Source: Candidatus Micrarchaeota archaeon
Lineage (GTDB): Archaea; Micrarchaeota; Micrarchaeia; Anstonellales; Bilamarchaeaceae
NCBI GenBank assembly: GCA_016212505.1
Contig: JACRGB010000003.1
Location: forward strand, 27,561-91,560
Direction of reading: 5' to 3'
DNA: 64,000 nucleotides
This document shows positions 25,961-45,101 of the stretch, one piece after another (position 1 is the first letter of the stretch; each line of letters starts with the position of its first letter). A program made the translations under genes and the position numbers. Under the pieces are notes generated by a model. It was not told where the DNA came from and made no database searches. It saw nothing but the letters and a program-made list of their open reading frames with translations.

Positions 25961-26500
25961 ATGAAAAAAGAAGAACGGGTAGTACGAGTTCAGATCCGAC
26001 CAACTGATTCCGAACAAAAACCAGCACTGGGAAAAAGAAGAGCTCCCATGAACAGCAGTGTAACGATAACGGCAACTGAAGTAATTGAGAGATTGAAAGC
26101 AACTGCAAGTGGCTGGGATCACATCGTAGCTAACATGATCGGACTTATCAGGTTAGAAAAAGAAGAAGTAAAACTTTTCGTAAAGGAAGGAGAAAAAACC
26201 AAAATTTATTCTCTCGATGATGATGATCAGATGTTTGGGATTCTTCAGGCGCTTTCACTGGGAAGCTCATTGCCAAAAAGCCTTCCAAAATTTGCAATTG
26301 CAGTTGTAGAAGAAACAACCAACATATATTTTGTATTGGTATCGATAAATGAGAGGAGAAAAATCATAGTAAAGGCACTACTTTCTAGTTACATGGATCG
26401 AAATGAGAGTGAGTGGAGAGAGGTATTTGTTGCAATAAGGGCAGCTGAGCAGGAGTATCTCATGCCAGGAAATAGGGGCAACCTTGTCATTTCAACTTAA
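25961..26500 (+). CDS. Hypothetical protein (convergent with giant gene; ends 15 bp from its stop)
   Basis: 179-aa ORF with a protein-like composition. No recognisable motifs. Confidence 0.4.
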   Translation: MKKEERVVRVQIRPTDSEQKPALGKRRAPMNSSVTITATEVIERLKATASGWDHIVANMIGLIRLEKEEVKLFVKEGEKTKIYSLDDDDQMFGILQALSLGSSLPKSLPKFAIAVVEETTNIYFVLVSINERRKIIVKALLSSYMDRNESEWREVFVAIRAAEQEYLMPGNRGNLVIST

Positions 26501-26515
26501 TAAAAATAGTTAAAA

Positions 26516-29500
26516 CTATCTAGATGCACGCAATGCTTTTTCCGCCATAGCTTGGGCATCAGGGAGAATATCAGCCCAGATATTTTGGAAACCGTCTTTG
26601 CCACCTATAGTAAGCAAGTGACTGAATATATCCGTTGCTTCAGGTGCATCAAACACGACACGACCATGCCGATCAGCCATAACATAATCACGCTGACCAT
26701 TTATCGGCATACCGACCATCACCTGCGGAGGGTCTCCCTTTTGGCCGCCCGCATAGTATGCTTCAATTTCTTTTATCGCAGTTGGGGAAAGTGATTGCCC
26801 AGCTCCAACCATCTGGCCATCATTTTTAGCAAAAGCAGTCACCAGGTTGCGTTCAAAATCAGGGGTACTCCCAACTTCAGTATGCCATTTTTTAGCCCCC
26901 TCTTTTATGGAATGGGTTGCTGATTGGGCCACTTCAGAAACGGGGCGGCCAGACAAACGCGCAAGGCTTATAAAAACTGGAGCTAAATCTTTTGAATATT
27001 GGGGGATTAGGTGTTCTTTGGAGGAATAAAGTTCATATCCCCCTCGTGTATTTTTAGTTACCCGAAAATGGCCTGCGGCATCAGTATCTATCCGCCCGAT
27101 TTTGAATATTGCAGACTCTCCCCTAACATCTACAACAGTATAACCTTCACTCTTAAGTAATGCAACCTTTGAAGGAGGCACTTTCAGCAACATACCCTGA
27201 AGGTTTCCAGAATGATTATCCCAGGAACCTCCCATCATGAGTCCAGTGCATGCATAACCAATTTCCTGATGAACTACCTCGGGATGTTCTTTATAAAATT
27301 TGGTTAATTCGGTATTGCCTTTCATTCTAGATAAACTAGCTGCTTCCATAGTTGAAGTTTGAATTGGTTCACCCCCAAGGTTGAGAGTACCGCTAAAGTA
27401 TTTGATATGGTCTATCAAACCCCATTTAACCGCCCCACCCTCCGGAGAGGAGAACGTAAGCGGTTTACTATTTGATTCGCTAACCACTCCGGCAGTTGGA
27501 ACATTTGCTATTTGCCCGGTTTTTGCCCCGAAAGCAGCAGGCCGTAAATCCTCGGCTTTTGCAATAAATGCTCGCTCTTCACCCGAAGGGGCAACTACTT
27601 TTATCTCGTACGCTCCAACCATACCATCATGGCCGATTATCCGAGTAATTTTACTGCCTTCTGGAACTTTGGCAAGGACAGTTTCAGAAAGATTACCGGA
27701 TAATAAAAGAGATCCGATTGTAGAAACCTGCTGATGATAGTTACCCGACCTAGGATCAAAAGAATGAGAGTAGAGTCCTTTTTTCTCTAAATAAGAGCTT
27801 ACATCAGCCACAGCCGCTTCATTGCTCTTTGCATTAAGATAGACATTTTTTAATTCACCTGAAGATAAGCCAAGTGCTTTCTCAGATGCAGGCACTCCCT
27901 TAAGGTTTTCCAAATAAGTTGCAGCCGAGTGTTCTCCGGCAAGAGTTAGAGTTCTGATGCTTTGTTCTTGTTGGGCAGGAGGAGCTGCTAAAAATGACTC
28001 TGCGGATTTTGTGCGTTCTGTGACGGCTGGGGATCTTAATGATGCTCCTAATTTCTGTGCCTCTGAACGCTCTGCGCCAGTGAGTTCGTGCTGCTGCGCA
28101 CGAGGTTCAGCTGGAGTTTCTAATGCCCGAGGCAATTCTTGCACCGGAACTGCACGTTCTTGAGCCGGAGAATGCCCCGTGGCTTTATTAAGTTCAACAA
28201 CCTTTGGCGCAGTCGTCAAGGAGGTGCGTTTCTTTATTTCACTATCAAGACCATTTGCAGCCTTTTCTAATGCAACTGCCAAAAGAGGATTTGTTTTTTG
28301 ACCGCTTTCTTTAGGGGGATTACGCCAGAACTTTGCTTCATCTCGCAAAGAGCCGGCACGCTCGGATAGCTCCCCAACTTCGATTTTAGGGTTATCAATC
28401 AAACGTTGGGTCTGGAGCTTTGCCGTAGCCTCAAGGGTCACGGAGTCATTCTGCAACTGGGGAATATGCCCTTCATATATGGCCAAACCCGCTTCGTTTA
28501 ATGCGAGATTAAATTCTTGGTTTTGCCTTGGAAGTCTTTCGGTTCCGGAAACGTGTTCCCGATAAGATCTGGCGAGATTGCCTGCAGCACGGGCAGTCCG
28601 TTCTGCTTCTCCCACACCCATGCCCGAATTGATCAAACGATCCTTAAGTTCGGAAAATGCACTTTTCTCTGCGAATTTATGTGCCTCTGCTGCGACCTGT
28701 TCTTGAGGAAGAGGTTTTGCGGATTGGTCAGAGGGATGCGCCAATTCGAATTCCGCAGCTCGCCTAACCGTTTCAAATTTTTCATTAATTGCTCTAGCGT
28801 GAACATCAAGTGCACTTGCAAGTTTTACCTGCTGCTCCCGCACAGGTATTGCTTCTGCGCCTTTTCCTAGGGTATAGACAGTACCTTCTGGAGAAACGGA
28901 ACTATCTGAAAATCGCGACCGAAATCTTGTTTCATTACGAGTAAATTCAAAGTTAGGAGTTTTGAATCCATCAAAAAGTGAGACGGGTTGGCTGCTGGTT
29001 TTTTCCTGAGCCACTAAAACATCCGCACTTTGACGCAATTGCTTTGCGTCAGCAGTAAGTTGTGCAGCCCGATCTTCGAGTACTTGCGCCCCTGCAGAAT
29101 CCCCCTGGCGGTTCAATCTTCGCATTTCTGTTAATGCGTCTGTTGCTTGGGCAGTAATATGATCTGCCTGAGCAAGCAATTGTTGCGAACTTGGAACTTC
29201 TGCTTGATGGGCCATAGGCCGTACTGGAGCTGCTGACCTATTCGTCCGTTCAACTGCCAAACGCCTGGAGATGGCTCTGGAAAAATTAATTCCAAATCGG
29301 CCAACTGCACCAACATCAATACCAGCATTTGCATAAACTGGGGTCCGGTCTACGGCCTCGACAAAAGCAGCCCCAAAAACTCTAGCCCCGAATTTTACTT
29401 TATCAAAACCCTTACTCGCTGCTGATTTAGTTTTGTCTTTAGCAATCCGTGCTGCTTCTCCGGCGGTTTCTGCAGCTACGGCCATTCTTCCAACAACCCG

Positions 29501-32137
29501 CTCAGGCATAGCAACTTGAACATTAGGCCCAGTAGTGACTTTTGGGGCAGATTTTCTAGAGTTAACCGTAATTTCTCCGGAAACAACATCTCCTGCATTA
29601 ACTCCTTGAGGCATCCGGCTAGCCATAGAGTTTGGAATTTTACTTTGAGGCAGTTTCAAGGTTGGAATTTCGAAAGTTGATCCGAAGGCAGCAGTGCGCA
29701 CTTTACTGGAAAAACCTTCAATAACAAATGAGCTGGTCCTCCTATAAGAGGATTTAGCCAGATTAAAAGCACTTTTACGTGAATGCCACAAGGGCAGTGC
29801 ATTATAGAGCAAATCAGCCCCGCCACTTGCCCAGTCACCTTGACGGATCTGACTATACGCGCTACCAACTCCTTCTACAGAAAAACCGAGATTGATACCC
29901 GTTTCTGCCACCCTAAATGCCACGCCGGCATGGCCTAAATTAAACGCATTTGCAGATCCTTTGAGAAGCGGGTTAAATCTAAGCCCAACTACGCTAGTGA
30001 TAAGCATGAGTTGGGTTTTCCACGAAACATCCCCGGTAAAGTATTGCTCCCGAGCAGCGCCCCGGAATGCACTTGCAACACCAAAAAATTGGCCGATAAC
30101 CGGAATAAATGCAACTAGCCTCTCGGCCCATTCATTCAACTTATCTGCAACGTGCATTTTATGTTTTAGTTCATCAAATCGGATTTGAAGCTCTTCCCCG
30201 GCCTGATCAGCAAGTGCCTGAGCACGGTAATTCTGCTTAACTCCGCTATAATATCCTATCAGCTTTTTTGATTGGGCAACAATGGCATCTTGGAGCTTGC
30301 CTTCACCAACTGCAAAAACACGGGAACTTGAGGTGCACACGGAAGCTTCAAAGCGGGCCATAACTTCTGCAAGTTTCTGGTTGTTTTTATCAAAACCCTT
30401 CCCTTCCAGATGTTGATCAAGCAAATGCAACGAAGCATCCATAAAAAATCCAAAATTATTTCTCACAGGATCTATTTTCCCGCTCCTATCAAGAAGGGCA
30501 GCTGCAGAAGCATTGTATTGTTCACCCATCGAACGGGTATCTATCCGAAGCATATTCATTGCAGCGGCCTTAGCCCTAACCGCATCCGTGAATGATCGCC
30601 TGACGGTTTCAGACATTCCTCCAGAAAGATAGGAACTTAGGGCAGCATCATAGGATTTTCTCATAGTGTCAAGACTTTCCATACCGCGAAATTCTTTGGT
30701 TTCTTTCCAGTCGCCCTGACGAACTGCCTCGTAATATCCTGAAGCATTCCTGGTTTCATTCATCAAAAAGATCCCGGTAGAGACAAAAGCAACGGCTTCG
30801 TTTCTGGATTTATAAAATTCTGCAATTTTAGCACTGGCTGCAGATAAATCAGAAAGTTTTCCGCTTTTTTTTGCTTTTTCTATTTCACCCTTAAGTTTTG
30901 CAGATTCTGCCTCTACAGATTCTAATCGTGCAATGAATTTTGGGATTTCATACCGAAATGAGTCTCCAAACTGTGAATGTACGAATTTCTTTAGTTCATC
31001 AGTACTGGCCAATTCGCCCAATTGTTTTTCCTGTGCATTTACATATTCGAGTTGTTTTTTTGTTATGAACTCATTGGTTTTTTTATCAAACTCAGGAAGT
31101 AGTTTGTTTACCTTAGCAACATCTCTTTTTTCTATAGCCAATTTCACTTCATCAAGGGATTTTTGAAGCTCGGGGATTTCGCCGTAACTGGCAGATAGTT
31201 GCATATATGCTTCTCTGCGTTGTTCCAGAACAGATTTCGTCGTAGGAATTTTGCCGTCCTTATCTTTCTTGCCAGGCTGTGGCTGCGTAAGGCTAATACA
31301 ATATTTTGCATCCTCAAATTTTTTCATGCCATGTGCAAATGCAGCTTCTGCATTCTGAATATCGCCCTTAAGGTGTAATGAAACTGCTTCTTTTAGGTCG
31401 TCTAGGCCGTCTGATTTTTTTATGCCCTTAATATTTAGGGCATCTTCGTAACTCATAAGGCGGTCAAGTGCAGCATCTGCTTGGGCAAAGATTTGGTGTG
31501 CTGATTGTGGATTTTTTTCTTCTGGTGCAGAATCATAAAGTTTTTTGATTTGTAATGCAGCACTTTTGATGAAGGGGTCAGATGAGGCCAGAAGTTTTGG
31601 AACAGTGGAACGAAAATCACCGAGTGCTTTTGACTGCTCTACTTCATTAACACGGGAATTCATCTGCCCGATAAGTGCCCCTGCAGCGCCTCTTAGACTA
31701 TCATCAACCTTGTTTTGTTTAAACTGTAAAAGTAAATAATCAGTTTGGGACTTAAACTGCTCAAAAAGATTTACAGAGTGATCAGCTGGATCGATTTTGG
31801 CTTTCCCTAAGTCATTCATACGGGTAAGCAACTCCGCAAGTGCAAGGCAAACCTGCCCATTTGCATAACTAACATCGGTTAGGCCTTCTTTTTGAGCGCG
31901 GACAAAAAAAGCATTAGCCCGTTTGCCGAGTTCACTTACGCGCACATCGTCAGATCTCGCATACCCTCTTGCAGAAGCCCTTAATGCGTCAGGAGCACTG
32001 TTCAGCTTAACATCTTGAATATCTTTAATGGCAGTCTCTTGTGCACGGGCAGCAACTGCACCTAATACGGGGGCAAGTGCACTAACTTGTCTTGTCGGGT
32101 CATTTTCCTGAGGGTTGTAGAAGTGGGGCATAGGCAT
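26516..32137 (-). CDS. Giant (1873 aa) signal-less, largely helical protein with a central hydrophobic hairpin, a Gly/Ala-rich region and a C-terminal PI3K/PI4K-like kinase catalytic core; candidate effector/toxin
   Basis: Uninterrupted 5.6-kb ORF. It appears GC-richer than its surroundings. There is no N-terminal signal peptide. The first ~670 residues are K/E/A/Q-rich and coiled-coil-like. Hydrophobic segments lie at residues ~673-693 (LVAFIPVIGQFFGVASAF) and ~708-720 (QLMLITSVVGL). Residues 725-960 are G/A/S-rich. Residues 1524-1691 carry FIAKAEDLRP (Lys motif), GSWDNHSGN (D-x-H-x-x-N catalytic loop) and IDTDAAGHF (DFG-like). The Lys-to-DxH spacing of ~115 aa matches PI3K spacing. Confidence 0.85.
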   Translation of the reverse strand: MPMPHFYNPQENDPTRQVSALAPVLGAVAARAQETAIKDIQDVKLNSAPDALRASARGYARSDDVRVSELGKRANAFFVRAQKEGLTDVSYANGQVCLALAELLTRMNDLGKAKIDPADHSVNLFEQFKSQTDYLLLQFKQNKVDDSLRGAAGALIGQMNSRVNEVEQSKALGDFRSTVPKLLASSDPFIKSAALQIKKLYDSAPEEKNPQSAHQIFAQADAALDRLMSYEDALNIKGIKKSDGLDDLKEAVSLHLKGDIQNAEAAFAHGMKKFEDAKYCISLTQPQPGKKDKDGKIPTTKSVLEQRREAYMQLSASYGEIPELQKSLDEVKLAIEKRDVAKVNKLLPEFDKKTNEFITKKQLEYVNAQEKQLGELASTDELKKFVHSQFGDSFRYEIPKFIARLESVEAESAKLKGEIEKAKKSGKLSDLSAASAKIAEFYKSRNEAVAFVSTGIFLMNETRNASGYYEAVRQGDWKETKEFRGMESLDTMRKSYDAALSSYLSGGMSETVRRSFTDAVRAKAAAMNMLRIDTRSMGEQYNASAAALLDRSGKIDPVRNNFGFFMDASLHLLDQHLEGKGFDKNNQKLAEVMARFEASVCTSSSRVFAVGEGKLQDAIVAQSKKLIGYYSGVKQNYRAQALADQAGEELQIRFDELKHKMHVADKLNEWAERLVAFIPVIGQFFGVASAFRGAAREQYFTGDVSWKTQLMLITSVVGLRFNPLLKGSANAFNLGHAGVAFRVAETGINLGFSVEGVGSAYSQIRQGDWASGGADLLYNALPLWHSRKSAFNLAKSSYRRTSSFVIEGFSSKVRTAAFGSTFEIPTLKLPQSKIPNSMASRMPQGVNAGDVVSGEITVNSRKSAPKVTTGPNVQVAMPERVVGRMAVAAETAGEAARIAKDKTKSAASKGFDKVKFGARVFGAAFVEAVDRTPVYANAGIDVGAVGRFGINFSRAISRRLAVERTNRSAAPVRPMAHQAEVPSSQQLLAQADHITAQATDALTEMRRLNRQGDSAGAQVLEDRAAQLTADAKQLRQSADVLVAQEKTSSQPVSLFDGFKTPNFEFTRNETRFRSRFSDSSVSPEGTVYTLGKGAEAIPVREQQVKLASALDVHARAINEKFETVRRAAEFELAHPSDQSAKPLPQEQVAAEAHKFAEKSAFSELKDRLINSGMGVGEAERTARAAGNLARSYREHVSGTERLPRQNQEFNLALNEAGLAIYEGHIPQLQNDSVTLEATAKLQTQRLIDNPKIEVGELSERAGSLRDEAKFWRNPPKESGQKTNPLLAVALEKAANGLDSEIKKRTSLTTAPKVVELNKATGHSPAQERAVPVQELPRALETPAEPRAQQHELTGAERSEAQKLGASLRSPAVTERTKSAESFLAAPPAQQEQSIRTLTLAGEHSAATYLENLKGVPASEKALGLSSGELKNVYLNAKSNEAAVADVSSYLEKKGLYSHSFDPRSGNYHQQVSTIGSLLLSGNLSETVLAKVPEGSKITRIIGHDGMVGAYEIKVVAPSGEERAFIAKAEDLRPAAFGAKTGQIANVPTAGVVSESNSKPLTFSSPEGGAVKWGLIDHIKYFSGTLNLGGEPIQTSTMEAASLSRMKGNTELTKFYKEHPEVVHQEIGYACTGLMMGGSWDNHSGNLQGMLLKVPPSKVALLKSEGYTVVDVRGESAIFKIGRIDTDAAGHFRVTKNTRGGYELYSSKEHLIPQYSKDLAPVFISLARLSGRPVSEVAQSATHSIKEGAKKWHTEVGSTPDFERNLVTAFAKNDGQMVGAGQSLSPTAIKEIEAYYAGGQKGDPPQVMVGMPINGQRDYVMADRHGRVVFDAPEATDIFSHLLTIGGKDGFQNIWADILPDAQAMAEKALRASR
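27000..27900 (-). other. PI3K/PI4K-like (atypical lipid/protein kinase) catalytic domain within the giant protein
   Basis: Codons 1524-1691 map to ~27065-27568. rc(27541-27580) encodes ERAFIAKAEDLRP. Motifs are described in the parent feature. Confidence 0.4.
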
Positions 32138-32146
32138 TACCGATAA

Positions 32147-32422
32147 TCAGGGAGAAGGCAACTCACGACAGAGTTCATCCAAAACGCCAAGACTTTCTGA
32201 AATAAGTTCTAAATCAGTACTATTGCCATAAACATCTCTCCAGTATTCCAGTGCGCTTTTCCATTTTTCAAGCCGTACGAGTTCTTCAGGAGGAGTTTTG
32301 GACTTAAATTTAGGGTTATTTAGGTTTAATGCGATGGATATTGACTTAATACTTTTATCAACTCGGTAGATAGAATTACCGTAAAGTTTGAGCAATTCGG
32401 AATCTAAATTCTGATCTGCCAT
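32147..32422 (-). CDS. Small acidic cytosolic protein, translationally coupled to the giant gene (possible chaperone/adaptor)
   Basis: 91 aa. Its stop lies 10 nt upstream of the giant protein start codon. No TM. Helical and acidic composition. Confidence 0.5.
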   Translation of the reverse strand: MADQNLDSELLKLYGNSIYRVDKSIKSISIALNLNNPKFKSKTPPEELVRLEKWKSALEYWRDVYGNSTDLELISESLGVLDELCRELPSP

Positions 32423-32495: not shown

Positions 32496-33596
32496 CTAGA
32501 TCAGTTTCACCAGTCCCCTTCCTATTTCCGGGATGTTTCCCCCAAATAAGTTCGCTGCGTTAAGGGTGAATGTCATAAATACCACCATTGCGATTAATGG
32601 GAAGAGGCAAATTGCTGAAAGCAGATGGAGGGCAAGATCCGAAAGATGGTAGGTCACCAATTCAGTAAGCTGGCCATAGTTTGCTCTTAATCGGACTACG
32701 GATTCGCTTAAGCTGCCGACGCTGGGGCTCTGGCAGGCATAAGTTGAAAGATCATCTGGAACAGATGGAAGCATGCAGTCGTATTTGAACGAGCTTTCAA
32801 GGGGCGCGGGATTTGGGTTTGCAACAAGCAGAGAGGTCTGCACATGGGGAAGCGACATAGTTGCCACTAGGATATAAGTAAGGGGAAATACGAAATATAT
32901 GCCTACTGAAATTGCCATCATAAATGCGCCGGCACCGCGCACTGGGGGAAAGGCACGGAGTGCAACCCCAACAGAAAAGAAGAAACCAGCATAATATTTG
33001 ATGAAGGTGAAGGTATGGACAATAAGATAATACATGTACATGTAAAATGACATTGATTTTGTTGCGGTTGCAATTCTTTCTGAAAGCCATTTTATACCAA
33101 ATCCCGAGGCCACTTCGGACATGAAAATTTCCATATAAACAGATGAAATGGCCTCCACAGGGATGCTGAGGCCATAAAGGACTTTCATAAAACCGCTAAC
33201 GCATCTTGCCGGGGTTTCCATATAAAGGATCATCCAGTCGATGAGCGTGTTTTGGCTAAATACCACGCCATTCCAGGGAAAATCGTTCGAGTTGAGCTGG
33301 AAGGTAGAAAGATAAAGTGACTTTGCAACAGAACTGTGGAGTCCTGGCAGGGGCGCTCCTTGGGCAAGCAGGGGTTCGCCAACCTGGGCAAGCGCGGCCA
33401 CCATAATCACAATAAGCACGGTGGATACTGCATAAACAAATTCCGTTTTCGCTGTCTGCTCGAGGTTACGTAGGGAAAAGAGCCGGGAAAACATAATCAG
33501 CATGGCAGCAACTACTACTGATAGTGATGCTGCGGCAACCGCAAGCAATTCCCAGCCTGCATAGAAAGACGAACAGAAAAAAGTTGTACAAACCAT
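32496..33596 (-). CDS. Polytopic membrane protein, paralog family member P1 (366 aa)
   Basis: Shares the N-terminal motif (SRLFSLRNLEQTAKTEF), the loop motif ALRAFPPVRGAGAFMMAISVGIYFVFP and the C-terminal ...GNIPEIGRGLVKLI with the five upstream paralogs. Confidence 0.7.
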   Translation of the reverse strand: MVCTTFFCSSFYAGWELLAVAAASLSVVVAAMLIMFSRLFSLRNLEQTAKTEFVYAVSTVLIVIMVAALAQVGEPLLAQGAPLPGLHSSVAKSLYLSTFQLNSNDFPWNGVVFSQNTLIDWMILYMETPARCVSGFMKVLYGLSIPVEAISSVYMEIFMSEVASGFGIKWLSERIATATKSMSFYMYMYYLIVHTFTFIKYYAGFFFSVGVALRAFPPVRGAGAFMMAISVGIYFVFPLTYILVATMSLPHVQTSLLVANPNPAPLESSFKYDCMLPSVPDDLSTYACQSPSVGSLSESVVRLRANYGQLTELVTYHLSDLALHLLSAICLFPLIAMVVFMTFTLNAANLFGGNIPEIGRGLVKLI

Positions 33597-34847
33597 CTAG
33601 ATCATCCTCGTTAATGAACTTATATCTACTTCTTCGCCGAAAATTGCGCTGAACCTCCTTGCAGCTTCAATAAACACAAGGACATTTAGGGCAGGGGCAA
33701 GAAACGCGAATAAAAATGCAAGTGCTACCACGGAAATTGGGATCATTATAATTATTGTAAATGTATCCCCAACAATGGACTGGAGGATGGAGCCAACTCC
33801 GCCATAAGTACCGCTTACAATGTCAGTAATGCCTCCATTGCCAAAACCTTTGGAGAAAAAATCGCTTGCATGCTTCATGAAACCGCCCGGGGTCAGGTCG
33901 CTAAAGAAATTGCGGAGGAAATCTGTCCAGTTAACTAAAGGATTCCCAAGACCGCTTAACATGACACTAAAGGTAAGGACGGTAAGGAGGGGAAATACAA
34001 GGAGGAATGCTGCGGAAATCCCAATCAGGGTCCCTCCAACCCTCCGGGTCGGGGTAAAGCAGCGGAGGAAAATACCTGCTGGCAGATAATAGTGAAGGAA
34101 TGCCTGTAATGAAAATAGGTAAACAAATAGCTGCGCATACATTATGATATATGCAACAGATAATGCAACCGACATATTATACAGCAGTTGTTTTATAGGG
34201 GAGAAAAATCCTGCAAAGGGAGTTGCTACAAGCCCAACGCCAAGAGGCCGGGCATAGGGAGTAACCGAAGCGAACTGGTCTACAATCACATTTAGCAGGT
34301 AGCTCATATCCAGCCAACTGCCGACATAGTATCCACCAAGTTCAAAAAATGCCCCTGCGACCTTATATACTGAATCTCCGGCCACAACACCAGTAAAACC
34401 AGAACCTAGTGGAGTTGCTTTTGGGAAAAAGTCTTCTGGAAGGGAGGATCCCATATCAATATTTGCAAGGACAGCAATTGAGCCCAAAATGATAACTGCA
34501 AGAAAACCGGAAATGACAAGTTCGAGAAGTTCCTGCTTTACGAAATTTATGACCATCTGGTTCCTTAGCAGGGTACCAAAAATATAAAATAATGCAAGAA
34601 GCACTGCTGAAACCATTAAAGCTAAACCCGATGGGGCAACCCAGTCCCACATGCCGGCAAACTGGGTGGAAACTATTGAATCAGCATCAAGCTTGAACAT
34701 TCCTGCAGTTCCCTGCGGGGGGGAGGGGTTTTGGAAAGGCGGGGCCTGCACACAGCCCGAGCTGATAAGAAATAGGAAAATGGCGGCGAGGAGGATGAAT
34801 ATTTTGGTTTTTTTGTTGCCGATCATACGCATAGTAAATCTCCCCAT
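33597..34847 (-). CDS. Polytopic membrane protein, paralog family member P2 (416 aa)
   Basis: Motifs GTLLRNQMVINFVKQELLEL and FLRCFTPTRRVGGTLIGISAAFLLVFP. C-terminus EEVDISSLTRMI. Abuts P1 with no gap. Confidence 0.7.
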   Translation of the reverse strand: MGRFTMRMIGNKKTKIFILLAAIFLFLISSGCVQAPPFQNPSPPQGTAGMFKLDADSIVSTQFAGMWDWVAPSGLALMVSAVLLALFYIFGTLLRNQMVINFVKQELLELVISGFLAVIILGSIAVLANIDMGSSLPEDFFPKATPLGSGFTGVVAGDSVYKVAGAFFELGGYYVGSWLDMSYLLNVIVDQFASVTPYARPLGVGLVATPFAGFFSPIKQLLYNMSVALSVAYIIMYAQLFVYLFSLQAFLHYYLPAGIFLRCFTPTRRVGGTLIGISAAFLLVFPLLTVLTFSVMLSGLGNPLVNWTDFLRNFFSDLTPGGFMKHASDFFSKGFGNGGITDIVSGTYGGVGSILQSIVGDTFTIIIMIPISVVALAFLFAFLAPALNVLVFIEAARRFSAIFGEEVDISSLTRMI

Positions 34848-36110
34848 TCATATAAGTTTTAAGAACCCAAAGAAATTAACATTAACTCCGAAGAACTTTG
34901 CAGTTTCCTTTGCTGCAGTAAGGGTAACGAAAATATTAAAGAACGGCAGCAGTACGGCCATCATGACGATATAGTATACGGACCCCCGCACAAGCTCAAA
35001 GGCCAGTGAAACTATCCCTCCCATGAAGAATGGCACCAGCACGCCGCTCGTAAGCAGCATTGAAATAACCGCAGTCCCAAAGACATTGAAGATCCCGCTG
35101 TTGGTAATGAAGCTGTTTATTGCTTTTTGGGCATCGATGATATTTCCACGCATTAGCTTGTGGACCTCATAGTCAATCAGGAACATGAACGGGTAAACGA
35201 GCGCGAGCGAAAATGCAATTGCGATCAAGGCTTCGCCTGCATTCCGCGTAAAAGGTATTGCACGAAGAAGGATGCCTAGCGGAATGAATAAGCTCCATGT
35301 CCACTTTTTGATTATGCATAGGGTGACAAGGTGGAGCAGCCATTCGCTAATGCCAAGGGAAAGGAACTGCAACGACGTACCGATAACATCAATAAGGGGC
35401 TTGAGTATGGGACCCATGTTAAACGAATACATTGCACGCCAGGTAACGCCAAACCACATTGTAGATGAATAGATCGTATGGACTACGGTGTTGTAAAGAA
35501 GGAGCATGCTGTAGTCGGTTGACATTTCGGTTATCATAACCCGGGTGAACTGTAGCGCGGCATCCATCATATTTGAATTGAAACGTGGATTGCCATAAAT
35601 AGGGTCGGCACTTGCATTCCCTGCACTAAATGAAAACCATAGCCCGCCCATGCCAATTGCCACAAGGATGACCATCACCCTGCGGATGGTGATTGTGGTC
35701 TGGTAAAGCTCATCTTTTGCAAGTGCGATTAATGAGGGCGAACTGAGAAGCTGGCCGAGCATATAAAATGCAGCGATTCCAAAAAAAACTACAAAAAGTG
35801 CAAGAATTGTAGGTGCAATCCAAAGTACATTTACAGTATCAGGAGAAATTGCAGGATTCGGGTTGGGGTTTTGGACTGAGAGGAAAGGATCATCGCAAGA
35901 GCTTCCCTTAAGGGTGTCAAAGAGGCTGTTGATGCCTACTGCGGCAGCTCCGGCGGGTGCCACTGCAGTATTTTTTATGTCATCCCAGCCCTTGTTCATA
36001 TTGTCGACGAATTTTTGGAATGCAGTGCTCCCAGCATTTTGGTCTGGCGGGTCGGCAAATAGGATGGAGGTGGAGAAGATCAGGATCAGGAATATGGGTA
36101 GCACCTTCAT
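34848..36110 (-). CDS. Polytopic membrane protein, paralog family member P3 (420 aa), signal peptide
   Basis: Starts MKVLPIFLILIFSTSILFA. Motifs GQLLSSPSLIALAKDELYQT and LLRAIPFTRNAGEALIAIAFSLALVYP. C-terminus VNVNFFGFLKLI. Abuts P2. Confidence 0.7.
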   Translation of the reverse strand: MKVLPIFLILIFSTSILFADPPDQNAGSTAFQKFVDNMNKGWDDIKNTAVAPAGAAAVGINSLFDTLKGSSCDDPFLSVQNPNPNPAISPDTVNVLWIAPTILALFVVFFGIAAFYMLGQLLSSPSLIALAKDELYQTTITIRRVMVILVAIGMGGLWFSFSAGNASADPIYGNPRFNSNMMDAALQFTRVMITEMSTDYSMLLLYNTVVHTIYSSTMWFGVTWRAMYSFNMGPILKPLIDVIGTSLQFLSLGISEWLLHLVTLCIIKKWTWSLFIPLGILLRAIPFTRNAGEALIAIAFSLALVYPFMFLIDYEVHKLMRGNIIDAQKAINSFITNSGIFNVFGTAVISMLLTSGVLVPFFMGGIVSLAFELVRGSVYYIVMMAVLLPFFNIFVTLTAAKETAKFFGVNVNFFGFLKLI

Positions 36111-36111
36111 A

Positions 36112-37611
36112 TCAAATCAGCCTCGTAAGTCCTGCTATTTCTATATCCCCGCCAAAGGTCATGGAAAGCGAACGTATTGCGGCAATAGTGGAAATTATTG
36201 CAAGCAATGAAAAGAACATTGACCAGAAACTAAGCCTTGCAAGGATATCGAGCGGGCCATTTGGTTCCCAGGAAAAATTAATCCAGCTATCTTGCTTGCT
36301 CGCTTGGGAGAGTTGGCCGAACCAGCTATCCCGGTCGGTAGGATCGAACGCTTTTTCTGCCGCGGCAAGCGCTTTCTGCTGTTCTGCAACTACTGCCGGA
36401 TCCTTGCTGGCAGGATCATCACCTGGGCCTGCATTGAATCTGGGAATTAACTTATTGGTGGCTGGATCATTTTTTTCGATAGTTTCAAGATAGGCCAAAT
36501 CATAGGGATTGACCCCTTCCTTGGCAACACCCGAATACCCTTGTATATTTGCAAGAGTCTGCTGAGCACCCCGGGTGTCGAGCTTATTGCCCCCTCCTAT
36601 TACAGGTACAAAACCCAGTATATACATGGTGTTTGCAATTGGAGGGTCGGGATTGAGTTTGCCAAGAGGATTGGCTTTTACATTTAGGGGAGAAACCCAA
36701 TCATCACGGACATTATCCTTGAGCTGGATCATTACCAGCCCGGCAAAAGCATAGAAGGTCGGATAGATGAAATAGAGGGCAATTGCAATTGCAAGCATAA
36801 GGCCACCAAGGCGCCGGGTAAATGTGAATGTACGCAGAAGGGTCCCGGCAACAAAGAACGAAGGGAATATGGCAAGTGCGATAAAGCGCAGGAAAATTTC
36901 CTGCATCTTAGTGATCATAAGGATTTTCATGGCCCATTCAAATGCCAGAGATTTGACATTATTGCCCATTGTGAAGAATCCCCTCCAGGGGTTGAATGTG
37001 ATGAACCCGGTTTTTTCAAAAATAGTTTCAAAGTTTATAGTAAATTCTGCGGCCATAGAAGTCCAGATATAGTCGATATAGGTATTGAATGCAAAAGTAC
37101 TAGTTTCATCAAACACTTCCCGCAGGTGCCAGATGCCCATACGTACAGAACAGGAGGAAATGCCATTGTAAACAGAATATTGGTTTTCAGCAATATCGTC
37201 CCCGCATATGTCTATACACGCATAGTCACGTATGCCATTGTTTACCAGCGGGATCTGACCTGCACGAAATTGTTGGACGTAAGTTGTAGTTGCAGTAGTT
37301 GCGCCAGGGCAGAGGGTCCCAGGAGAAGGTTGGGGATTATTTCCGATACCCTGGTGCGGCATCAGGAGAATAGCCCCATGCACAACACCATCAACAAGCG
37401 GAAGGCTGGTTATTGCAAAAGAAAGGATTATCGCTGAATAAAATAATTCTGCTAGTTCCATTTTGGCCCATGCCTTTATTTTATCGTTCATGAGCATGCT
37501 GCCGATCATATACACTCCGCCAATTAGGCAAGTAACTATTCCGAATGCAATTCCGGCAAAAGCGAGCCAGTCGCCCCAGAACAATTTTATAGTTGTAAAT
37601 ACATCGACCAT
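36112..37611 (-). CDS. Polytopic membrane protein, paralog family member P4 (499 aa)
   Basis: Motifs GSMLMNDKIKAWAKMELAEL and LLRTFTFTRRLGGLMLAIAIALYFIYP. C-terminus GDIEIAGLTRLI. Confidence 0.7.
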   Translation of the reverse strand: MVDVFTTIKLFWGDWLAFAGIAFGIVTCLIGGVYMIGSMLMNDKIKAWAKMELAELFYSAIILSFAITSLPLVDGVVHGAILLMPHQGIGNNPQPSPGTLCPGATTATTTYVQQFRAGQIPLVNNGIRDYACIDICGDDIAENQYSVYNGISSCSVRMGIWHLREVFDETSTFAFNTYIDYIWTSMAAEFTINFETIFEKTGFITFNPWRGFFTMGNNVKSLAFEWAMKILMITKMQEIFLRFIALAIFPSFFVAGTLLRTFTFTRRLGGLMLAIAIALYFIYPTFYAFAGLVMIQLKDNVRDDWVSPLNVKANPLGKLNPDPPIANTMYILGFVPVIGGGNKLDTRGAQQTLANIQGYSGVAKEGVNPYDLAYLETIEKNDPATNKLIPRFNAGPGDDPASKDPAVVAEQQKALAAAEKAFDPTDRDSWFGQLSQASKQDSWINFSWEPNGPLDILARLSFWSMFFSLLAIISTIAAIRSLSMTFGGDIEIAGLTRLI

Positions 37612-37652
37612 ATTGCATCCTCAGAGGTTTACTCATAAATTCTTCAAAATAC

Positions 37653-39416
37653 CTACATTTTCATCAGTATAAATTTCGTCATCGCATTTATGAATGCTAT
37701 AGTGACCATAATTGAGAGTGCGGGCATAAATAATGATAGAAGGGTAAGTACCGCAAAGTGCCGCATGATTATTGTAAATTCCGGCATGGGCAGGAGCCCC
37801 AGTACCCCTTCTGAGAAAAAATTACCCAGTGACTTTTGCACCGCAGTCCCTTTGGGAAGGTATTCGAATATTTTCCCCGGTGCAGTAGCGGGATTAAAGA
37901 AATAGCCAAATGCACCGTATTTTACCGGCCCGCATATTGAGTAAATTAAGGTGTTGGGGCTTTGGTATCCCGAAGGCCCAAGGTCCTCATACGCTTTCTT
38001 ATCGATCAGATAACCCATCGGAAAAACAATTTGGAAGCCTAATGCAAATGCCATAAGGAATGCACCTGCATCGCGGGTGGGCGGGAAAAAGTGCAGGATA
38101 AGCCCCGCAGGGAGGAAAAAATTACCCATAGTAGAATCTATGAAATAGAGAAGGCTGATTTGCGCAGATAAGCTGCCATAAACAGCTACGAGCCCATAGG
38201 AAAGGACATTGGAAATAGAAACAAAAGTATCGATTCCAGGAAAAACCTTATAGGTACGGGTAAGCACGGATTCTCCGATCCTTCTTGCATAAACGCTGAG
38301 CATGGAAGTGCAGGACTGTATCGAGTAAACATCATATATGCCGTTTAGTACTGGATCAAGTGCCTTCTCTTGCAGGAAATTTATTGCGGCAAGGGAAGGC
38401 GAGTTGGTATGGTAAGCATCATTTGCCCAAGCTGAAACGATCTGGCTGCCTACAACGAAAAGTCCTGCCACAAAGAGGACAAGAAGGAATGAGCGGAAAA
38501 GGTTGGAAAGTTCGACATTGAGGTAGCCCTCCCATTCAGGAACCCGGAAAACTTTTGAAACTATATAAGTCAGGAAAATTATCAGGGAAACAAAAAAGAA
38601 TACGTTGATCATCAGGTCAGCGTAGGGAGAAATGGATGCGGCAGTGCCTATTTTTGTCTGAAGTATCGAATCAAATGCGCCACCTTTAGCTAAAAAGACC
38701 TTGAATACGACGAAATAGACTATTGCTACAATAAAAGTACTTGCAAGGAGATTATTCGCAAATCCGGTTGCCCTGGCCCGGGTTTCTGCGCCAAACATCA
38801 TCCCGGCAGCATAGAAAACCGCTGCAAGAATAGCAAAGACGATTGTCAGGAATGCAAGTGAATTTTCGGATATGGTTTTTAGGTCGCTGAAGATTTTTAA
38901 GAAATCGACGGATGATGGCTCGCCACCGGCATTAAGGCTGGGCTGGATGATCGAGAGGAGGAAGAACATTATGATTATTACTAACGCCGAAACACCAACC
39001 GCAGTAAGCATGCTTTCAGTCCAGGTAGATGCTTTTGCTCTTAAGTCTGCACCAAACATCTGGCCAATAACATAAACTGAAGCCGCTATTACGATCATGG
39101 TGATTAGGAGAATCCCCATGACAGAAAGGGCAAAGGGAAGTAGGGAATTAGGGGAACTGTTAAGGGCGGATAAGGGATCAATTGGTGGATTGGCGGCAAA
39201 TGAAAATGAGGGCAGGAGTAGCGATAGAAATAGCACAAGCAGGAAGAGCGAGAAAGGAGTTTTTATGTTTTTTATTATATTGGAATTTGCAAATTCCAAT
39301 GCGTGGAGAAATTCTTTGGAATTTCTCCTGTAGCGAACCGTGTTCGCTACGGACAAATTTTTGCGAAAATTTGTCCTTGTAGTCTTCGTGAAGTCCATTA
39401 ATAGCACCCTTTTCAT
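37653..39416 (-). CDS. Polytopic membrane protein, paralog family member P5 (587 aa; 5' end doubtful)
   Basis: Motifs GQMFGADLRAKASTWTESML and LILHFFPPTRDAGAFLMAFALGFQIVFP. Lacks the GLTR-type C-terminal tail. Its first ~45 codons are made of four tandem DNA palindromes (see repeat feature). Confidence 0.65.
   Translation of the reverse strand: MKRVLLMDFTKTTRTNFRKNLSVANTVRYRRNSKEFLHALEFANSNIIKNIKTPFSLFLLVLFLSLLLPSFSFAANPPIDPLSALNSSPNSLLPFALSVMGILLITMIVIAASVYVIGQMFGADLRAKASTWTESMLTAVGVSALVIIIMFFLLSIIQPSLNAGGEPSSVDFLKIFSDLKTISENSLAFLTIVFAILAAVFYAAGMMFGAETRARATGFANNLLASTFIVAIVYFVVFKVFLAKGGAFDSILQTKIGTAASISPYADLMINVFFFVSLIIFLTYIVSKVFRVPEWEGYLNVELSNLFRSFLLVLFVAGLFVVGSQIVSAWANDAYHTNSPSLAAINFLQEKALDPVLNGIYDVYSIQSCTSMLSVYARRIGESVLTRTYKVFPGIDTFVSISNVLSYGLVAVYGSLSAQISLLYFIDSTMGNFFLPAGLILHFFPPTRDAGAFLMAFALGFQIVFPMGYLIDKKAYEDLGPSGYQSPNTLIYSICGPVKYGAFGYFFNPATAPGKIFEYLPKGTAVQKSLGNFFSEGVLGLLPMPEFTIIMRHFAVLTLLSLFMPALSIMVTIAFINAMTKFILMKM
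39280..39376. repeat. Four tandem perfect palindromes at the P6/P5 junction, two of them the same motifs found upstream of dnaG
   Basis: TTGGAATTT-gc-AAATTCCAA (39280-39299); GGAGAAATTC-tttg-GAATTTCTCC (39305-39328); TAGCGAAC-cgt-GTTCGCTA (39331-39349); GGACAAATTT-ttgcga-AAATTTGTCC (39351-39376). Confidence 0.55.
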
Positions 39417-40690
39417 ACCACTTTTGTTAAACCGACCAATTCAGCTTCACCGCCAATTAGCATAGAAATGCTGCGGTACATTGTCACGGTGATTATTATT
39501 TCCAGGACAGTGGTGAGTATCACAAGCACAATAAATGGTGAAATGGTCCCAACTTCGTTCAATATGAAGTAATAGAGCCCGGCTGAAGAACTCGTAGGAA
39601 GGAAAGTTGATTTGGACCCAAAGAGGCTGGGGTAAAAATCGCCGGTTGTGCCTACCATAAAGAGCCAGATATTTCTTACAGTTGCAGCCAAAGATCCTCC
39701 TGTATTCCAGGCTGCACGAGCCATATTTTTGAGACTGCAAAGCAGACCAGTAACCCCATCACATCCGAGAGTTGGGGTTTTTGTTGCATCTGCAAGCTTG
39801 TCTGCTTCTTGAAATTCCTTGGTGATCGCATCGGTCCTACTCCCCTCCCTCCATTCAGTTATGAGTTTGGTCCAATAACCCTCATCATGATGAGTTGCAA
39901 GGTAAGATGGAGTTTGCGGGGTGTAAACAAAATCCGCTGGTTTGTACATGGAAAAAATCAGATAATGTGAAAAAATTGTGGCAAAGGGAAGGACAAAATA
40001 CATTGCAAAACAAATTGCGAGGATGCTTGAACCTGTGGTCCGGTAAAAGGGAAATGCACGGAGGATGAGGCCAAAGGGAAGGATAATTAATGGGATTGCG
40101 TCTTTAGTGAAAATGAGTATAAATTCCTTGGCCATTAAAACAGTAACAAGATAACTGATAGTCTCTACGATTATGGTGTGGGCATCACTAAGAAGGGTTA
40201 GTCCGGTAAATGGTGCAAATGAAAATGAGATAATGGCTACTGAGGGTATGGGCGAGCTGACCGGGAAACTGACTGTGGAAAGGAAACCTATCAGGGCTTC
40301 AAAAAGATAAAGGTCAATATACTGGGAGAAAAGCTTTTCTTTTAGGATAGTTAACACGCCAAGGGCAAGGTTGATATGTGCAGAGGTATAAACCTGATTT
40401 GGGTTTGCATTATTTATTACCCCACCAAGCCCTGAAGTACTTGATTGCAGCGCACCCTGGACCAGGGCATTTAAGGTGGTATCGAGGCTAAGCCAAAAGA
40501 AAATGATTACTGCAGAAAAAATTAAAGCAGCCAGTTCTTCCTTTGCAATAGCAGTAATTGAAGGGCTTTGTAAAAAATAAGCCACAAGAAATATTGAGCC
40601 GGTTAACCCCGTGGCAAAACCAAGGGAAACAAATATCATAGACCAGGCTGCTGGCGGTAAAGTTATTGCCAATAGCAGGGGAAGTAGCAT
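39413..40690 (-). CDS. Polytopic membrane protein, paralog family member P6 (425 aa), first gene of the locus
   Basis: Motifs AYFLQSPSITAIAKEELAAL and LILRAFPFYRTTGSSILAICFAMYFVLP. C-terminus GGEAELVGLTKVV. Confidence 0.7.
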   Translation of the reverse strand: MLLPLLLAITLPPAAWSMIFVSLGFATGLTGSIFLVAYFLQSPSITAIAKEELAALIFSAVIIFFWLSLDTTLNALVQGALQSSTSGLGGVINNANPNQVYTSAHINLALGVLTILKEKLFSQYIDLYLFEALIGFLSTVSFPVSSPIPSVAIISFSFAPFTGLTLLSDAHTIIVETISYLVTVLMAKEFILIFTKDAIPLIILPFGLILRAFPFYRTTGSSILAICFAMYFVLPFATIFSHYLIFSMYKPADFVYTPQTPSYLATHHDEGYWTKLITEWREGSRTDAITKEFQEADKLADATKTPTLGCDGVTGLLCSLKNMARAAWNTGGSLAATVRNIWLFMVGTTGDFYPSLFGSKSTFLPTSSSAGLYYFILNEVGTISPFIVLVILTTVLEIIITVTMYRSISMLIGGEAELVGLTKVV

Positions 40691-42847: not shown

Positions 42848-43768
42848 TCAGGGTTTGGTTTTGATTCTAAACGGAGCATCCGGACTGCGCATAAATTCTT
42901 CAAAACCGGTAAGATCTAAATCGGTAATTCTCTTAGGGAGATTGTCTTCGAAGTTTCCTTTACCAAATTTGTCGCCATAATAACGTATTATCTGCTCTGC
43001 CCTCATAATATTCAGCCTAGCCAACCGTCCTGGATCGCATTCAGTTTTATCCACAAAATCCACAAGAAAAAAAGATTCTTTTGGAGGTTTAGCAGAGGGA
43101 TCAAAAGCTTTCCAAAGGGCTGAATCTTTGGGAACTAATACAAAAAGCGTTAATTTGGAGGGATCTTTGGCAACTTCTTCGCTTTTGCGAACTGGGAGTA
43201 CATCTGCGAGAAAATTTTGCCTACCATAAGCGTCAGTATAGCAAGAAATTTCAATTTTTAGCACCCCGAAAGAACAGTTTTGGGCGGCATCGAAAAGGAG
43301 AACTTTTTGTACCATCACCTCAGGTACTATCGGCCAATCGGAAAGATTGCCGGAACTTATTGAAACTTTTGTTACCGCGCCGCCAGTGTTTTCGAATATC
43401 GCTGCGCCAGTAGGGCTCAGCTCGAGTGTTAGGTCCCTATCAACAACACAGATAGACTCAATCGAAGGTGGCTTATCTTTTTGAAGGTCTAATTGTATTG
43501 AAACCGCTCGGCCTTTTTGGCGGAGTGATTGTGAAGGCATCTCAGGGGCCAGGATATGAAATTTGCCCACTTCTCTTTGGGGCGAAGGAGGCAAACCAGT
43601 AGTCTTCCTTGTTGGGCCAGTATAAGATGCTATTGAGTGTTGAAAAGCATCGGATAATCTTGCCATCATATATACTTGGTAAAAACAGTTTATAAATGTT
43701 ACTAAAAATGATGAAAACTGTAATGTGGGGGGTAGTAGCCTAGGGGGCAGCGCCCCCTGGCCCTGCAC
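42848..43768 (-). CDS. Hypothetical protein
   Basis: 306-aa ORF. The start may be an internal Met (MMARLSD...). No recognised motifs. Confidence 0.4.
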   Translation of the reverse strand: MQGQGALPPRLLPPTLQFSSFLVTFINCFYQVYMMARLSDAFQHSIASYTGPTRKTTGLPPSPQREVGKFHILAPEMPSQSLRQKGRAVSIQLDLQKDKPPSIESICVVDRDLTLELSPTGAAIFENTGGAVTKVSISSGNLSDWPIVPEVMVQKVLLFDAAQNCSFGVLKIEISCYTDAYGRQNFLADVLPVRKSEEVAKDPSKLTLFVLVPKDSALWKAFDPSAKPPKESFFLVDFVDKTECDPGRLARLNIMRAEQIIRYYGDKFGKGNFEDNLPKRITDLDLTGFEEFMRSPDAPFRIKTKP

Positions 43769-43880
43769 ACTTGTTCAACCGCTTTTTCATTGCTTGAAGC
43801 TCAAAGGGCCATTACATGTGCAAAGGAATGATGATAAGAACAGATTAAAAATAGGGAAAAGAAGAGAAAAAAAGAAACGA

Positions 43881-45101
43881 CTATCGTTTCTTCTTGCCCA
43901 TGAACATGAATGCCGCACCGCCCACAATAACCACAAGGACGATCAATCCGATTATGATGGGAATAAGAAGATCGGTTTTTGGAGCGGGTTTAGCAACAGG
44001 AGCAGATGGAGCGGATTTTGCCAGCTGGCCTGCAACTGAAGAAACAGATTTGGCAAGGCTCAACGCGGTGGCGTAGTCTCCCTTATTGAATGCAATAACA
44101 GCATCATTTAGTTTTGATTGTAATGAAGAAGTATCCTGGCCTGCTGCTTTTGCTTTTGCAATGTCGCTCCTTGCCTGTGAAATGGCCACTTGGGCGCTTG
44201 ACTGTGCTTCCAGATTAGGGGACGGGTCTTCGGGGGGAGAAAGCGGAACAGGTGTGGGATTAACTGAAGGGGATGAATTGTTTTGCGGAGTAGGTTGGGG
44301 GGTTGGAGCAGGTGTTGGAGTAGGTGTTGGTGATGGAGTCGGGGCAGGTGTTGTTGGTGAAGTTGAGGTATTTGTAGAAGTAGAAGAACTGCTTGATGAA
44401 CTGCCAGAAGAACCAGAAGATGGAGGAGTTATACTCAAAGTAAGTGCAGCAGCACTTATTGTGTTACCGTTAACATCAAAGCTTACTGAACCAGAAGTGG
44501 TTGGAGTTATGGTCCATGAGAGTGAAGAGGAACTTCCACCTGGAATAGAAACTGAACCAGATGTCGAACCACCTGAAATACTAGCTCCGGAAGCACTTAA
44601 AGAATAACTGGCAGTTGCCGTGCTACCACCAGTATTGGTTATAGTAACAGAGTAAGTAACCGACTGGGTTGAAGTTAATGTAGATGATGAAGGGGAGTTT
44701 TTAGAAACTGAGAACTGATCTCCAGCCACAAACTCAATTGCCTGCTGGGTACCAGTTGCAGGGGTGCCAGATGATGGAGTAACTTGAGCATTAAAATTAT
44801 AAGTTCCTGCAGATGAAGCAGTGATAGTAAAAGTTTTAGAATCGCCAGTCTGAACTCCGGAATATTGATACGAAGAAGATGCAGAGGGATCAGTTACGCT
44901 GAGTCCGGAAGTAAGATCATAAAGTTGGAGGGTTGCGCCACTACAATCAGAGTCTCCGCCAACGATTACAGTTACAGATACGGAATTACCAACAGTAGCG
45001 CTTGCAGCAGCAGATATTGAAGAAATGCTGCAAGTTGAAAAAGCCGCTAGAGATAGCAATAACAAACCAAAAAGAAAAACTTTAGTAGACATCATAATCA
45101 C
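43881..45101 (-). CDS. Surface (S-layer anchor-like) protein: signal peptide, Ser/Thr-rich domain, Pro-Thr linker, coiled coil, C-terminal TM anchor
   Basis: 406 aa. Starts MIMMSTKVFLFGLLLLSLAAFS. Linker TPAPTPSPTPTPTPAPTPQPTPQ. C-terminus LLIPIIIGLIVLVVIVGGAAFMFMGKKKR. Overlaps the upstream large surface gene by 4 nt (ATGA). Confidence 0.7.
   Translation of the reverse strand: MIMMSTKVFLFGLLLLSLAAFSTCSISSISAAASATVGNSVSVTVIVGGDSDCSGATLQLYDLTSGLSVTDPSASSSYQYSGVQTGDSKTFTITASSAGTYNFNAQVTPSSGTPATGTQQAIEFVAGDQFSVSKNSPSSSTLTSTQSVTYSVTITNTGGSTATASYSLSASGASISGGSTSGSVSIPGGSSSSLSWTITPTTSGSVSFDVNGNTISAAALTLSITPPSSGSSGSSSSSSSTSTNTSTSPTTPAPTPSPTPTPTPAPTPQPTPQNNSSPSVNPTPVPLSPPEDPSPNLEAQSSAQVAISQARSDIAKAKAAGQDTSSLQSKLNDAVIAFNKGDYATALSLAKSVSSVAGQLAKSAPSAPVAKPAPKTDLLIPIIIGLIVLVVIVGGAAFMFMGKKKR

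Follow-up and report, generated by a model that had tools for sequence, protein, structure and literature searches.

A deeply divergent family of likely kinase domains, nearest in predicted fold to PI3K/PI4K and PIKKs, in giant proteins of Micrarchaeota

The PI3K/PI4K enzymes (PF00454; p110α, 4ykn; VPS34, 2x6f; PI4KIIIβ, 8q6f) and the PIKKs (SMG1, Tel1/ATM, mTOR and DNA-PKcs) are the closest known systems to a domain that we analysed at the C-terminus of a giant protein of 1873 amino acids (aa), encoded by Candidatus Micrarchaeota archaeon within a stretch of 64,000 nucleotides (nt) of contig JACRGB010000003.1 (hereafter the window). To our knowledge, the branch that comprises PI3K, PI4K, the PIKKs and actin-fragmin kinase (AFK) has been viewed as eukaryotic in the main, apart from a few bacterial effectors. 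AFK (1cja), a protein kinase known from one organism, and type II PI4K (4pla, 4hnd) are eukaryotic, have other accessory regions and share no sequence similarity with the Micrarchaeota domain. Archaea themselves possess Rio1/Rio2 and Bud32, housekeeping kinases that are small and universal and have a loop of the HxDxxxxN type; the Micrarchaeota family differs from these in being lineage-specific, in lying within giant proteins and in being structurally nearer to PI3K. The kinase-like fold is common to it and to bacterial CotH (5jda), CtkA (3akj), WaaP (6dfl), the Legionella protein MavQ (7m7a), OspG (4q5h) and HipA (7wcf), and some bacterial atypical kinases and effectors resemble it further in being enzymatic modules of secreted or translocated proteins. 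PI3K has been grouped with AFK on structural grounds, one of which is an arginine directly after the catalytic aspartate (Scheeff & Bourne, PMC1261164); this arginine of the DRH motif is present also in the consensus of the Micrarchaeota family. Compared with PI3K, PI4K and the PIKKs, the Micrarchaeota domain has IDTD in place of IDFG, an insert of about 25 aa forming a helix and a strand and, in the window copy, DNH; it gives no sequence or profile match to them, and its host is a DPANN archaeon. We describe a new family that is a very divergent version of a known fold and whose lineage and architecture are unexpected: residues ~1470-1873 probably form a catalytically competent atypical kinase domain of protein-kinase-like (PKL) fold, belonging to the PI3K/PI4K/PIKK/AFK branch and to a previously unannotated family of Micrarchaeota.

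A first-pass annotation of the window had flagged the interval 27000-27900 as a PI3K/PI4K-like catalytic core. This interval is the 3' part of a single giant open reading frame (ORF), whose features bearing on the domain are the following.
26516..32137, minus strand: giant ORF of 5622 nt (1873 aa), with an N-terminal module of ~850 aa, a low-complexity linker and the C-terminal kinase-like domain.
26519..27913, minus strand: modelled domain (aa 1409-1873), with N-terminal helices, kinase N-lobe, C-lobe and a conserved C-terminal extension.
27608..27634, minus strand: Gly-rich loop GHDGMVGAY (aa 1502-1510), between β1 and β2, with model strands E88-95 and E101-107 on either side.
27539..27568, minus strand: β3 lysine motif FIAKAEDLRP (aa 1524-1533), at the end of model strand E113-119, with the K1527 codon at 27557-27559.
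27203..27229, minus strand: catalytic loop GSWDNHSGN (aa 1637-1645), with D1640, H1642 and N1645.
27113..27190, minus strand: insert of ~25 aa, one helix (model H247-255) and one strand (E260-263), between the catalytic loop and IDTD.
27065..27091, minus strand: metal-binding motif IDTDAAGHF (aa 1683-1691), with D1684 and D1686, the counterpart of IDFG/DFG, after model strand E266-274.

The lysine, catalytic-loop and metal-binding motifs named in that annotation fall at 27065-27568 (aa 1524-1691), inside the flagged interval, at exactly the positions and in the order given there. The Gly-rich loop upstream of K1527, whose family consensus is GxxGAY, had not been listed. K1527 is the putative ATP-phosphate-binding lysine, and in the model the D-L-R-P that follows it runs into an αC-like helix; the family consensus of the catalytic loop is GxxD[R/G]HxxN. 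The distance from K1527 to D1640, estimated earlier at ~115 residues and as close to that of p110-type kinases, measures 113 residues and is identical to K802-D915 in human p110α, whose reference segment was confirmed against PDB chains (630 bits, 273 aa). That from D1640 to D1684 is indeed longer than canonical: it is 44 residues in the window copy and 18 in p110α, with 44-73 aa in the type-A copies of the family and 25-31 in the paralogous type-B domain (both described below). The type-B spacing of only 25-31 shows that the long spacing of the window copy is due to an insertion.

The predicted structure carries the assignment. An AlphaFold2 model of aa 1409-1873, made from a 23-sequence alignment and no templates, has a predicted local distance difference test (pLDDT) score of 93 and a predicted template modelling score of 0.91. 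Its elements are ordered as in kinases: strand E88-95, the Gly-rich loop, E101-107, E113-119 ending in K1527 and helix H124-135, followed by more N-lobe strands, the C-lobe helices, the catalytic loop, two strands split by the insert, and IDTD. The hallmarks of the PKL superfamily are thus all found, that is, a bilobal fold, an N-lobe β-sheet with Gly-rich loop and β3 lysine, and a C-lobe with catalytic loop and metal-binding aspartate, as is the residue pattern of a lysine, then Asp-x4-Asn, then an aspartate. Structure modelling and a fold search had been proposed as a check on the kinase call, and PI3K, PI4K or PIKK kinase domains came out as the closest structural neighbours. In Z units (model against known structures), PI3Kα scores 13.7 (245 aa aligned), SMG1 12.5, VPS34 12.4, Tel1 12.3, AFK 12.2, PI4KIIIβ 12.1, PI4KIIα 11.9, mTOR 11.8 and PI4KA 11.7; below them stand CotH (11.0), Bud32 (10.4), WaaP (10.2), CtkA (9.7), Rio1 (9.2), HipA (9.0), the APH-type kinases (~8.8), SelO (8.3) and MavQ (8.3). 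Foldseek against the PDB lists DNA-PKcs, mTOR, VPS34, ATM and p110δ first (E ~1e-3, probability 0.85-0.97), and against viral models it finds giant-virus Ser/Thr kinases and PI3K/PI4K. Since fold comparison ranks the PI3K/PI4K/PIKK/AFK group first, we assign to the domain a protein-kinase-like fold nearest to that group.

The motifs are shared by a family. Searched exhaustively with phmmer, 1.84 billion cluster representatives yielded 45 proteins at E<=1e-3 and 37 at E<=1e-10, most of them giants of 1300-7300 aa, several holding two or three copies of the domain. All homologs with an organism name are labelled Candidatus Micrarchaeota, Micrarchaeia or Bilamarchaeaceae (DPANN archaea), and the family is confined to Micrarchaeota as far as named sequences show. 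Several such proteins can occur in one metagenome-assembled genome (MAG), as with AB1324_01525, _02240, _05570 and _05575, or U0R44_03430, _03465 and _04435. The family hidden Markov model core spans aa 1471-1823 of the window protein. Conservation was counted over 40 aligned type-A domain copies from the 45 homologs, and the expectation that the motif residues would be conserved was borne out: D1640, N1645 and D1684 are kept in 40/40 copies, D1686 in 39/40, I1683 and G1637 in 38/40 each, K1527 in 36/38 and H1642 in 35/40 (it is replaced in the other 5), while in the Gly-rich loop G1508 is kept in 35/36, A1509 in 32/36 and Y1510 in 29/36. The residue next to the catalytic aspartate is arginine (DRH) in 19/40 copies and asparagine in the window copy. 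This conservation across 40 copies indicates that the three motifs are not a product of chance. In line with the earlier remark that no archaeal counterpart is described, searches of the literature turned up no account of this family, of PI3K-like kinases from DPANN archaea or of giant archaeal proteins free of lysine.

Alongside type A, the giant proteins carry a paralogous type-B domain, with the string ...FxKxEDxxPxxFG...DR[HFY]xRN...FQPID[TM]D, whose profile matches that of type A in hhalign (probability 99.6%, E 8e-25); in it an arginine always follows the catalytic aspartate and the insert is absent. Examples lie in P0010 (aa 4326 and 5561) and P0025 (aa 1107). A third module, type C ('GSxxGV...VAVKVFxDP...DFQF...GDVVxxDxGG'; P0035 aa 3027, P0033 aa 2810, P0010 aa 2935), retains its lysine even in the lysine-free giants and could represent a further kind of kinase-like domain. 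The insert between catalytic loop and IDxD is enlarged in P0006 (aa 1309-1803), P0027 (aa 5655-6139), P0017 and P0025 by repeated copies of a small module, 'LxxxGYxVxxxxDGxYxF', which hints at a mobile α/β element within the kinase C-lobe.

A separate line of evidence comes from paralogs that have been purged of lysine. Nine homologs are nearly without it, with 4-24 lysines each in 4855-7300 aa and 136 lysines in a total of 55,875 aa. In 18/19 domain copies of the near-lysine-free homologs the lysine of the K1527 column is nevertheless retained (product of chance probabilities ~1e-48), and of the four lysines in the 4987 aa of P0025, two are the K1527-column residues of its two domain copies. 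The depletion is protein-specific, since the genes flanking P0025 encode 4-9% lysine and the same MAGs encode lysine-rich paralogs. Because this lysine survives extreme lysine depletion, we see strong evidence that K1527 is functionally essential, as would be expected of the ATP-phosphate-binding β3 lysine of kinases. The near-lysine-free giants of 2980-7300 aa are P0010, P0020, P0025, P0026, P0030, P0033, P0035, P0037, P0042 and P0043; lysine makes up 0.08-0.43% of their residues and arginine 10-13%, and the few lysines left recur in a handful of motifs. In the P0025 gene (locus L005, 19-14982), AGG, which is one transition away from the lysine codon AAG, is the commonest arginine codon (300/634).

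Several results weigh against the assignment to the PI3K/PI4K/PIKK/AFK branch. Pfam, NCBIfam and PHROGs gave nothing relevant for the domain or the whole protein, even at E<=10, and Pfam gave no match at E<=1 for 23 family members; phmmer against the PDB with the protein and hmmsearch with the family profile returned noise only (for example carbamoyl-phosphate synthetase, E 0.12). Aligned by hhalign with a profile built from 95 class-I PI3K catalytic domains annotated as PF00454, the family profile reached a probability of 11.6% and P 0.0026, which is not significant, and the type-B profile gave nothing. At the level of residues, the window copy has DNH where DRH is expected and the second residue pair of its 'DFG' is T-D, not F-G; moreover, arginine replaces K1527 twice, in P0008 and in one P0035 copy, so that some family members may be pseudokinases. 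The one local hhalign match to the PI3K profile was the catalytic loop with the helix before it, and the comparison with p110α alone was not significant. A word-indexed homolog search with the C-terminal 474 aa had no matches, a single-protein scan of the genome collection no relatives, and Pfam found zero families in five giant homologs (P0002, P0003, P0018, P0020 and P0025; ~19,000 aa).

The PI3_PI4_kinase profile, proposed earlier as a check, gave no significant match; the earlier reading of a PI3K/PI4K-like core is supported by predicted fold and motif conservation. Membership of PF00454 by sequence was rejected because neither Pfam nor hhalign against class-I PI3K was significant, and kinship to PI3K therefore rests on structure and motif logic. 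We conclude that the domain is not a PF00454 member and represents a family of its own, new and very divergent, on the PI3K/PI4K-like kinase branch, a reading supported directly by the predicted fold, the conservation of the motifs, the selective retention of lysine, the phyletic restriction and the conserved gene partners described below.

Outside the domain, the protein has no recognisable PIK helical, C2, FAT or FATC domains. Its residues 15-850 are homologous to the shorter family members P0004, P0044, P0008 and P0022, and they include one further feature.
29768..30127, minus strand: Gly/Ala-rich hydrophobic helices (aa ~671-790, with hydropathy highest at aa 674), a putative hairpin in the membrane or membrane module of four helices.
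Comparable central hydrophobic helices, as a pair or a quartet, are kept in many of the giant family members. In an AlphaFold2 model of aa 520-860 (8 sequences) the whole stretch is helical; its confidence is low (pLDDT 47), and it was kept out of the fold search. The aa ~671-790 helices may form a membrane hairpin.

Activity, substrate, topology and cellular role are what we infer for the kinase-like domain, which on its conserved residues is probably catalytically active. ATP would lie between the lobes, beneath the GxxGAY loop; its α- and β-phosphates would be held by K1527, where β3 ends; N1645 and D1684, probably with D1686, would bind Mg2+; and D1640, aided by H1642, would activate the acceptor hydroxyl, to which the γ-phosphate would pass. 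As the enzymatic module at the C-terminus of a protein whose middle region is helical and hydrophobic, the domain would, because of that region, most likely act at the membrane, either on a membrane-proximal protein, which we slightly favour, or on a lipid headgroup. The lipid kinases (PI3K/PI4K) and the protein kinases (PIKKs, AFK and CotH) are near-equal structural neighbours of the domain.

That the domain is a protein Ser/Thr kinase, similar to the PIKKs, AFK or CotH, is a serious candidate, to which we would give somewhat less than an even chance. Its targets would be the products of two small neighbouring genes, the giant protein itself or host proteins.
32147..32422, minus strand: 91-aa ORF, whose end lies 9 nt before the start of the giant gene; conserved small partner.
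25961..26500, plus strand: 179-aa ORF, convergent with the giant gene; conserved partner.
The 91-aa ORF is probably co-transcribed with the giant gene; its product is 49% identical to that of a 93-aa gene upstream of P0004 (L002) and aligns with an 88-aa one upstream of P0008, and the ~90-aa upstream partner is present in 3/4 loci checked. The ~180-aa convergent partner occupies the same position in 5/5 loci (L001-L005), including beside the lysine-free P0025, with blastp E values from the window protein of 8e-23 (L004), 1.5e-19 (L002), 9e-5 (L003) and 2e-7 (L005). PIKKs, AFK and CotH rank among the closest folds, the synteny of both small genes with the kinase gene extends over divergent loci, and giant homologs contain two or three kinase-like modules that are paralogs, which suggests signalling or conflict at the level of proteins. 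However, synteny is no proof of a substrate relationship, Pfam gave no significant match for either partner family, leaving no recognisable phospho-binding or phosphatase domain in them, and no substrate-binding feature was identified in the domain.

A lipid kinase, the headline reading of the first-pass annotation, is possible and, in our view, somewhat less likely. Modelled on PI3K/PI4K and on the Legionella effectors LepB and MavQ, it would be membrane-tethered and would phosphorylate an inositol- or sugar-bearing archaeal lipid, such as archaetidylinositol, of the Micrarchaeon or of its host; the top-ranking PI3Kα fits it, as the PIKKs and AFK fit a protein kinase. Other chemistry on a kinase fold, be it AMPylation (SelO), glutamylation (SidJ), small-molecule phosphorylation of the APH/choline-kinase type or a HipA-like activity, is very unlikely: those families trail the PI3K/PIKK/AFK group by 4-5 Z units, the Gly loop and the catalytic Asp-Asn pair are arranged as is canonical for phosphotransfer, and HipA, which the first-pass annotation had kept as an alternative, is neither the closest fold nor a profile match. 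We give equally little credence to a pseudokinase or scaffold, an ATP-binding or merely structural module of a giant surface or membrane protein, which the replacements of the β3 lysine and of H1642 would favour, since the window copy holds every catalytic residue and the family keeps these residues invariant or nearly so, with the lysine surviving the purge, as expected for catalysis or at least nucleotide binding.

The rest of the window is of archaeal content, encoding an MCM, a CDP-archaeol synthase, a Pab1020-type RNA ligase and a PIN_5 protein. The MCM (5457-7493) shares 78-79% identity with MCMs that bear the label Micrarchaeota or Ca. Bilamarchaeum and is without an intein; the MCM gene beside P0003 (L004, 1081-4506) has one with a LAGLIDADG endonuclease. 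Upstream of the giant gene, six consecutive ORFs of 366-587 aa share its strand (32496-40690, minus); the four inspected have hydrophobic N-termini, and the six gave no Pfam or PHROGs match and were not found at the other loci examined. Further on, a 1508-aa ORF (45098-49624, minus) has a weak match to MG2, of α2-macroglobulin type (E 4.6e-5, below the Pfam cut-off), and its neighbours at 42848-45101 have no Pfam matches. A 5S rRNA gene (57946-58060, minus; 67.6 bits) is the only Rfam match in the window, and ARAGORN found no tRNA genes within the 64 kb.

DPANN genomes measure roughly 1 Mb, and a low lysine content is thought to let the A chains of AB toxins evade ubiquitination. We can imagine, on circumstantial evidence and as a speculation that we hold to be unlikely, that these lineage-specific giants (up to 7300 aa, several per genome), each with a membrane-inserting hairpin and one to three PI3K/PI4K-like modules, are contact-dependent effectors delivered into or onto a host archaeon, and that the lysine-purged paralogs, in which only the catalytic lysines are left, evolved to escape lysine-directed tagging or degradation by the host. 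If this were true, Archaea would have in them their first described kinases of the PI3K branch.

The kinase-like domain adds to the PI3K/PI4K/PIKK/AFK branch a deeply divergent, archaea-specific family that is invisible to Pfam, NCBIfam and profile searches. The lysine-purged paralogs amount to a natural mutagenesis experiment that pinpoints the essential lysine, and they raise the question of which lysine-directed process those proteins avoid. For the Micrarchaeota, the domain provides a first functional handle on giant 'hypothetical' proteins that occupy an appreciable part of very small genomes and are leading candidates for mediating the interaction between symbiont and host.
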